Shown piece after piece: positions 1 through 552 of a stretch of DNA of 552 nt. The position numbers and the translations under genes were made by a program. The notes under the pieces are model-generated. The model saw only the letters and a list, made by a program, of their open reading frames with translations, made no database searches and was not told the origin of the DNA. The DNA comes from Escherichia coli (GTDB lineage Bacteria; Pseudomonadota; Gammaproteobacteria; Enterobacterales; Enterobacteriaceae). The stretch's first letter is position 1, and every line of letters starts with the position of its first letter. The DNA is taken from NCBI RefSeq assembly GCF_003334255.1, contig NZ_QOWU01000224.1; one strand, given 5' to 3'.

Positions 1-320
1 TCGTGGTGACATTGTCTGCAGTGCCAGCTGGCTTTACGCACCACGGGTAAGGCATCCGGTACGAATTGCTGCAGACGTTTAATCAACTGTATTTCTCTGC
101 GCTCCGGCCTGACATAAGGGCACTGTTGACCGTGCTCTGTCAGCCTGTCGTCAGTGTGTTCAAACCAGGGAAGTTCAGTTTCGTATTGCGGATGGTATCT
201 GAGTGCACTGCCACACAAGTGGCAGGTGTAGTTAGCATAAGGTGCGGCCTGTGCAGTACGGGCGCCCGTCAGACGTCCGTTGCCATCAAGAGCGATAAAG
301 GATTTTGCGTACATAGTCAT
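1..320 (-). CDS. Hypothetical cysteine/histidine-rich (putative zinc-ribbon) protein, N-terminal 106 codons; 3' end lies beyond the window. Start may instead be the in-frame ATG at 314..312.
   Basis: Manual reverse-complement translation: ATG at 320..318, frame open to position 1 (106 codons plus 2 nt), in-frame TGA upstream at 380..378 with no intervening ATG or GTG. GAGG lies 3 nt upstream of the first ATG. Charged-residue content is typical of a globular protein. Motifs: C33-x2-C36...H55...C67 and C101-x2-C104-H-H. Absent from the ORF track, presumably because no stop is reached inside the window. Confidence 0.6.
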   Translation of the reverse strand, partial: MTMYAKSFIALDGNGRLTGARTAQAAPYANYTCHLCGSALRYHPQYETELPWFEHTDDRLTEHGQQCPYVRPERREIQLIKRLQQFVPDALPVVRKASWHCRQCHH

Positions 321-323
321 ATA

Positions 324-327
324 CCTC
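324..327 (-). promoter_or_regulatory. Shine-Dalgarno-like GAGG (minus strand reads ctGAGGtatATG)
   Basis: Minus-strand sequence gctgaggtat immediately precedes the ATG at 320..318. Spacing is 3 nt to the first ATG (short) and 9 nt to the second ATG at 314..312 (acceptable). Confidence 0.45.
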
Positions 328-398
328 AGCCGCCAGACGACACGCAGGCAACAGCCGTCCCGGTACGGGCAGCGTGGTCAGGGTGTGAATGGCGGTTC

Positions 399-428
399 AG
401 TTAAAATCTGGACTGGAGTTTGGGTAAA
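399..428 (-). promoter_or_regulatory. Weak sigma70-like promoter candidate for the minus-strand gene (-35 TTTACC, 18-nt spacer, -10 TTAACT)
   Basis: Minus strand reads TTTACC (plus 428..423), then caaactccagtccagatt, then TTAACT (plus 404..399). Both hexamers match consensus only partially and the spacer is long. This would place the transcription start about 70 nt upstream of the ATG. Confidence 0.2.
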
Positions 429-440
429 GCAGGCTGGTTG

Positions 441-455
441 CTGTTACAGCACTGT
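441..455. repeat. Cluster of alternating CTGT/ACAG half-sites (CTGT-t-ACAG-ca-CTGT)
   Basis: Plus 441..444 ctgt, 446..449 acag, 452..455 ctgt. Adjacent half-sites are exact reverse complements with 1-nt and 2-nt centres. Confidence 0.45.
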
Positions 456-473
456 GGTTGTCACACAATGGAA

Positions 474-497
474 CACTGACGTAAAAAACAGTCAGTG
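474..497. repeat. Perfect 7-bp inverted repeat CACTGAC-N10-GTCAGTG with an A-rich spacer; candidate operator or RNA hairpin
   Basis: Plus 474..480 cactgac, spacer 481..490 gtaaaaaaca, 491..497 gtcagtg, which is the exact reverse complement of the left arm. It sits about 155 bp upstream of the minus-strand start codon. Confidence 0.6.
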
Positions 498-552
498 GGC
501 GAGTGGATACATCGTTGCCGCCAGACAACAACCCATACTTTTGGTTTGCCGG

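Follow-up and report, generated by a model that had tools for sequence, protein, structure and literature searches.

Introduction

Bacillus CoiA is built from three parts, an N-terminal finger domain (CoiA_N, PF25164), a nuclease domain (PF06054) and a C-terminal domain (CoiA_C, PF25166), and all three are carried by the database sequences of genuine Bacillus CoiA that we used as the reference set. Small proteins that consist of zinc modules only are known from other systems, namely the RNA polymerase factors Rpb9/TFS, which have two zinc ribbons, and the Ogr/Delta zinc-finger activators of P2/P4, the latter encoded on mobile elements. Integrative islands of the CP4-57 type carry Ag43, toxin-antitoxin pairs, fec and many defence systems. 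A block of GTPase, DUF932, antirestriction, RadC and CbeA-CbtA genes is typical of islands of the CP4-57/CP4-44 type.

Here we describe a gene of such an Escherichia coli island, the 5' part of which lies in a stretch of 552 nt that was analysed as a whole (the window). The window DNA is 100% identical to E. coli chromosomes and is matched in 3783 of 5426 complete E. coli genomes (about 70%), often in several copies (median of 2 places per genome), and yet the gene is uncharacterised. The family is not new, since it is already represented in Pfam (DUF7828 and Zn_ribbon_11) and by a RefSeq entry. Literature searches for DUF7828, for DUF3279/Zn_ribbon_11/PF11682 and for Ybl85 gave only annotation labels in island papers, and the terms "putative zinc ribbon protein" and "inovirus Gp2 family protein" likewise appeared there as annotation labels only. 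The protein is a small member of this catalogued but uncharacterised family and has two putative zinc sites. We compared its N-terminal finger with that of CoiA, examined what follows the finger and surveyed the islands in which the gene resides.

Results

Position and start of the gene

The sole convincing gene of the window is an open reading frame on the minus strand, and the translation of positions 3-320 is exactly the 106-aa fragment from which the preliminary description had been made. At base 1 the window ends within the gene (Table 1). In NZ_CP025892.1 (locus L001), where the DNA is 100% identical, the stop codon follows 29 codons further on, and the full-length protein has 133 aa when counted from the RefSeq start or 135 aa from the ATG at 320-318. 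The second ATG is likely the true start, because it is the one annotated in RefSeq, is the start in 90 of 93 homologues and is better spaced from the GAGG motif. Residues are numbered here from the first ATG; RefSeq numbers are lower by 2. From the second ATG on, the protein is identical in sequence to RefSeq WP_000270978.1, which bears the name Ybl85 in UniProt. A TTG-initiated frame of 112 aa (66-404, plus strand) overlaps the gene in antisense; it has no counterpart in the RefSeq annotation and most likely represents a shadow ORF.

The leader upstream of the gene contains a 14-nt direct repeat, which reads TGTYGTCTGGCGGC on the gene strand (342-329 and 530-517) and GCCGCCAGAC(G/A)ACA on the plus strand (329-342 and 517-530), with the copies 188 nt apart. 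One of the copies abuts the ribosome-binding site. The repeat was not found at the 12 other loci compared, orthologous islands included, and at least two matches at 2 mismatches occurred in 11 of 100 shuffles, which places it only weakly above chance. On these two grounds we dropped the repeat as a candidate operator. Scanning of the window for a sigma-70 consensus promoter found none, terminator-like sites were not more frequent in the window than in shuffles, and Rfam gave no match in the window.

Table 1. Coordinates of the features discussed in the text; positions refer to the window unless a locus is given
Feature	Position	Strand	Basis and remarks
Intergenic leader, from the upstream YagK/YfjJ ("inovirus Gp2 family") gene to the zinc ribbon gene	321..552	-	annotation
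5' part of the "putative zinc ribbon protein" gene WP_000270978.1	1..320	-	106 of 135 codons; translation and RefSeq annotation in NZ_CP025892.1
Shine-Dalgarno-like GAGG	324..327	-	9 nt upstream of ATG 314, 3 nt upstream of ATG 320; read from the sequence
First ATG (M1 of the numbering used)	320-318	-	translation
Second ATG, RefSeq start	314-312	-	RefSeq annotation
DUF7828 domain (PF25165), residues 4-89	54..311	-	Pfam; beta-hairpin, C2HC finger, then alpha-helix (AF2)
C2HC putative zinc site, CoiA_N-like	120..224	-	C33-x2-C36...P-W-F-E-H55...C67
C33 codon	224-222	-	translation
C36 codon	215-213	-	translation
H55 codon (of P-W-F-E-H)	158-156	-	translation
C67 codon	122-120	-	translation
First CxxC knuckle of the C-terminal C4 ribbon	9..20	-	C101 at 20-18, C104 at 11-9
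Tandem paralogue WP_001221615.1, 144 aa	L001:12628-13062, just beyond window base 1	that of the gene	DUF7828 and Zn_ribbon_11
Upstream neighbour families	L001:8879-9481; L006:6498-7091; L006:7288-7860; and relatives		YagK/YfjJ type; REP_ORF2-G2P-weak type; ~200-aa uncharacterised type

Domain architecture and conserved cysteine and histidine residues

Pfam matches divide the protein into two domains. DUF7828 is matched over the whole model (positions 1-87 of 87) with E=2.5e-31 for the fragment and 5.5e-31 for the full-length protein, and Zn_ribbon_11 (PF11682, formerly DUF3279) is matched at residues 96-128 with E=8.6e-9. The latter domain contains a C4 zinc ribbon of the form W-H-C101-x2-C104-x9-C114-x2-C117, the second knuckle of which (C114, C117) falls just outside the window. 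Both domains were matched in the query and in each of 30 diverse members, and a word-indexed search collected 324 clusters, all about 130-140 aa long and all combining DUF7828 with Zn_ribbon_11. That the protein belongs to this family by identity and architecture is therefore close to certain. NCBIfam, PADLOC and PHROGs gave no match for the zinc ribbon protein or its paralogue. In public databases, members of the family carry misleading names such as "DNA-directed RNA polymerase, beta subunit/140 kD subunit" or "ribosomal protein L37AE/L43A", and a member from Budvicia is called "Competence protein"; these names probably stem from generic zinc-ribbon or CoiA-finger similarity.

A zinc-ribbon-like motif had been placed at 120-224 in the preliminary description, with about 18 residues between the knuckle and the histidine. 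This span is exact, as it runs on the minus strand from the codon of C33 to that of C67, and 18 residues indeed separate C36 from H55. Conservation was assessed in an alignment of 30 representatives with 24-67% identity to the query. C33, C36, F53 and H55 are invariant in this set and C67 is kept in 29 of the 30; W99, C101, C104, C114 and C117 of the ribbon are invariant as well. Other histidines of the span vary among the same representatives: conservation of H34 and H43 is confined to the close subfamily, and residue 63, a histidine in the query, is mostly Asn. As far as sequence can tell, this pattern indicates two sites in succession, C2HC and then C4, and the motif is more than a chance arrangement: it is a real and conserved, putatively zinc-binding finger. 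An AlphaFold2 model built with the family alignment reached a mean pLDDT of 84.8, with values above 90 for residues 1-70, about 90 for the C-terminal ribbon and about 70 for the linker. Zinc is very probably bound as a structural ion at both sites. Within the family, net charges lie between -7 and +7 and the median pI is 7.3. This near-neutral and highly variable charge argues against a generic strong binder of DNA or other nucleic acids, and protein binding is consequently at least as likely.

Likeness of the finger to CoiA

The likeness to the CoiA finger had been proposed in the preliminary description, and profile comparison supports it. Aligned with hhalign against the N-termini of Bacillus CoiA, the profile of the DUF7828 N-domain scored 45.1 over 57 columns (probability 95.3%). 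The alignment pairs C33/C36/H55/C67 with C30/C33/H51/C57 of CoiA, and the leading strand FIALDGNGRL with FSAVTEDGQM. Shuffling the columns of the CoiA alignment 100 times gave a maximal score of 19.0, and 100 shuffles in which the four ligand columns were held fixed reached 20.6 at most; the similarity thus exceeds the shared ligand pattern. Six of 30 family members matched the Pfam model CoiA_N at E<=0.1, all below threshold (best E 1.5e-3). The zinc ribbon protein itself had no match to this model and its paralogue matched at E=0.39, again below threshold. Of the Pfam families against which the preliminary description had suggested a comparison, a zinc-ribbon family is matched, and the CoiA families are not matched above threshold. 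The DUF7828 finger appears to be homologous to the CoiA-type N-terminal finger in sequence profile and in predicted fold.

The similarity does not extend beyond the finger. When full-length profiles were aligned with hhalign, only the finger aligned with CoiA; the nuclease and C-terminal CoiA domains are absent, and the zinc ribbon protein is therefore not a member of the CoiA family. The helix that follows the finger was considered as the first helix of a truncated CoiA nuclease, and this was dropped, as the hhalign alignment stops at the finger. No match to PF06054 or another nuclease family of Pfam was obtained in the 30 members, and no match to CoiA_C in the query or these members. The N-domain profile was also searched exhaustively with HMMER against 1.84 billion representatives, which yielded 181 proteins. 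The best 150 of these 181 are all at most 240 aa long, except for one spurious repetitive protein, and no nuclease is present in any true relative among them. The exception, P0258 (1196 aa), is the sole long match and was rejected, since it is a repetitive protein that matches the stretch "LDGNGRLTG". This search did not reach CoiA, whereas the profile-profile and fold comparisons did. The nuclease that had been expected in the truncated remainder of the gene is not there: the frame ends 29 codons past the window, and what these codons complete is the C4 zinc ribbon.

Island context and the tandem paralogue

The island of locus L001 (NZ_CP025892.1) contains a gene for an AlpA-like HTH protein, a YeeP/YfjP-type GTPase gene, Ag43, IS66 and the fec operon. 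The zinc ribbon gene comes after a co-oriented gene of the "inovirus Gp2 family" (YagK/YfjJ), AlpA is encoded on the opposite strand, and IS66 lies on the downstream side. We extended the survey to the surroundings of homologues with 25-65% identity from Citrobacter, Klebsiella, other Enterobacterales and metagenomes. At loci L002-8, L010, L011, L012-14 and L017 the DUF7828 gene is preceded by co-oriented genes for the excision regulator AlpA and for a protein of the YagK/YfjJ or REP_ORF2-G2P type, often also by a gene for an uncharacterised protein of ~200 aa. It is the last gene of this AlpA/Rep-like module and is followed by variable cargo, while the other side of the module is occupied by the divergent GTPase/DUF932/antirestriction/RadC/CbeA-CbtA block. 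Taken together, these loci show that the gene belongs to the conserved backbone of CP4-57/CP4-44-type integrative islands of Enterobacterales.

The gene directly upstream varies among three families of ~190-200 aa (Table 1), for which there is no NCBIfam or PADLOC model; PADLOC-DB v2 holds 0 families for the zinc ribbon protein, its paralogue and the upstream Gp2-family protein. The site directly after the DUF7828 gene behaves like a cargo hotspot at L002-L008, L010, L012 and L016. The cargo differs between loci and comprises a Dpd 7-deazaguanine system (DpdD, PLD, DEAD helicase, PTPS), a cluster of SNF2, AAA, Peptidase_S8 and N6_N4_Mtase genes, an OLD-family AAA_15-TOPRIM nuclease, radical-SAM/cyclase genes, and MarR together with oxidoreductases. 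According to the preliminary description, CoiA-like families occur in defence islands too. This holds for the present gene in so far as it adjoins a cargo slot that often harbours defence systems; it is, however, a backbone gene tied to no one system and has no PADLOC match. No homologue was found in 50,697 phage records, and the family is rare on plasmids (33 of 72,556 records). A tblastn search of the leuX/KpLE2 region of E. coli K-12 MG1655 (4494000-4520000; L009) detected no DUF7828 copy in that region. Like the L001 island, this K-12 region carries the fec operon and IS debris.

Just beyond base 1 of the window lies a tandem paralogue of the same architecture. This B-type protein is 30% identical to the A-type protein of the window (E=3e-15), and its start shares 13 bp with the stop region of the window gene. 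This overlap suggests that the two are translationally coupled and perhaps form an A-B heteromer. A- and B-type copies occur together at L001, L002-5, L014, L016 and L017. In addition, a natural protein of 238 aa (P0158) joins two DUF7828 units in a single chain, and its first unit is without the C-terminal ribbon; this fusion is consistent with paralogues that work together.

Discussion

The observations as a whole are best explained by a non-catalytic island adaptor with two zinc sites, a reading to which we assign a blended probability of about 0.6. Two conserved Cys/His sites, a helix and a linker make up the whole protein, and a catalytic motif is lacking. The N-terminal DUF7828 domain would form a beta-hairpin with a C2HC finger and one helix, from which a linker of lower confidence would lead to the classical C4 ribbon, with zinc serving as a structural ion at both sites. 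The CoiA-like finger could then bind DNA or a partner protein, and plausible partners are the paralogue and/or the Rep-like or AlpA machinery of the island. Such an adaptor would not cut DNA but might serve the excision, replication or regulation of the island. That it contributes in this way to island maintenance, by binding DNA or a partner protein, we infer from the lack of a catalytic domain, and we propose this part of the reading only tentatively. Three families alternate in the upstream position, and this weakens the case for the Rep-like protein as a specific partner. To say that the protein works like the CoiA finger has, moreover, little mechanistic content.

Several other explanations were weighed against the island adaptor. 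Motifs of the C-x2-C type with scattered His and Cys are common, and the window also holds the 112-aa antisense frame, so one might suspect a fortuitous Cys/His pattern in a non-functional or mis-called reading frame. The Pfam match of about 1e-31, ligands that are invariant at 24-67% identity while nearby histidines vary, the confident AF2 model and the retention of the gene across many genera leave practically no room for this; the conservation data refute it. Hardly more probable is that the window encodes the N-terminal part of a PD-(D/E)XK nuclease of the CoiA-like kind, perhaps an effector in defence, with the nuclease domain encoded beyond the window. The finger is CoiA_N-like, and an anti-phage protein of E. 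coli with a CoiA domain has been reported (PMC9519451). The full-length sequence already refutes this idea, as the frame closes after 29 more codons with a C4 ribbon, and several further results speak against it: PF06054 and PF25166 are unmatched in the 30 members, no true member among the best 150 of 181 exceeds 240 aa, PADLOC gives no match, and the next gene downstream encodes a paralogous zinc protein, not a nuclease.

Two regulatory or accessory functions fit parts of the data better. By analogy with Ogr/Delta or Rpb9/TFS, a small zinc-ribbon transcription factor might contact RNA polymerase and control the island or the adjacent cargo genes. Its two zinc modules joined by a linker, a weak RPB9 profile match across both ribbons (E=0.035), the position at the boundary between core operon and cargo, and a near-neutral charge that suits protein binding rather than DNA binding would all agree with such a role. 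There is, on the other side, no significant sequence or fold match between Rpb9/TFS or Ogr/Delta and the DUF7828 protein. We regard this function as unlikely. Somewhat less likely still is an accessory of defence or anti-defence, which as sensor, regulator or decoy would serve the downstream cargo system or protect the island during transfer. Its neighbourhood speaks for it, with Dpd DNA-modification genes, the SNF2/AAA/protease/methyltransferase cluster and the OLD-family nuclease downstream, and with antirestriction and DUF932 genes in the islands. The slot also receives cargo unrelated to defence (MarR/oxidoreductases, radical SAM/cyclase, IS66, fec), however, the gene is linked to no one system, and neither PADLOC or PHROG matches nor homologues in the phage records were obtained.

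Returning to the island adaptor, a bolder version can be formulated. DUF7828 proteins might be nuclease-less relatives of the CoiA finger, often present as an A/B pair, whose task has become the structure-specific binding of DNA or the binding of Rep/AlpA. Excision, rolling-circle-type replication or transfer of the very common CP4-57/CP4-44-type islands would then be under their control, or they would gate the adjacent (defence) cargo slot. We consider this version improbable as it stands; if true, CoiA and these proteins would have in their finger a common portable module that recognises recombination intermediates. Irrespective of this, a false lead is removed, as no hidden nuclease or defence effector resides at this gene. 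The N-domain amounts to a CoiA finger that stands alone, and the finger of CoiA is just as unstudied. The binding target of the N-domain, once known, could inform both the biology of the islands and the part that the finger plays in CoiA during transformation.

In comparison with the described systems, the DUF7828 protein shares with Rpb9/TFS and Ogr/Delta its small size and its construction from zinc modules only, and with Ogr/Delta also the residence on mobile elements. It differs from them in its N-terminal site, which is a C2HC site of the CoiA_N type as opposed to a two-knuckle C4 ribbon. The comparison with CoiA is the converse, as here the finger is similar and the remainder is not. Behind the finger, CoiA has a PD-(D/E)XK nuclease and CoiA_C, the DUF7828 protein one helix and a C4 ribbon. 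Within the finger, the spacer from His to Cys measures 11 residues in the DUF7828 protein and 5 in CoiA. Finally, DUF7828 proteins are encoded on islands of Enterobacterales, whereas CoiA (also YjbF) belongs to the competence regulons of Firmicutes.
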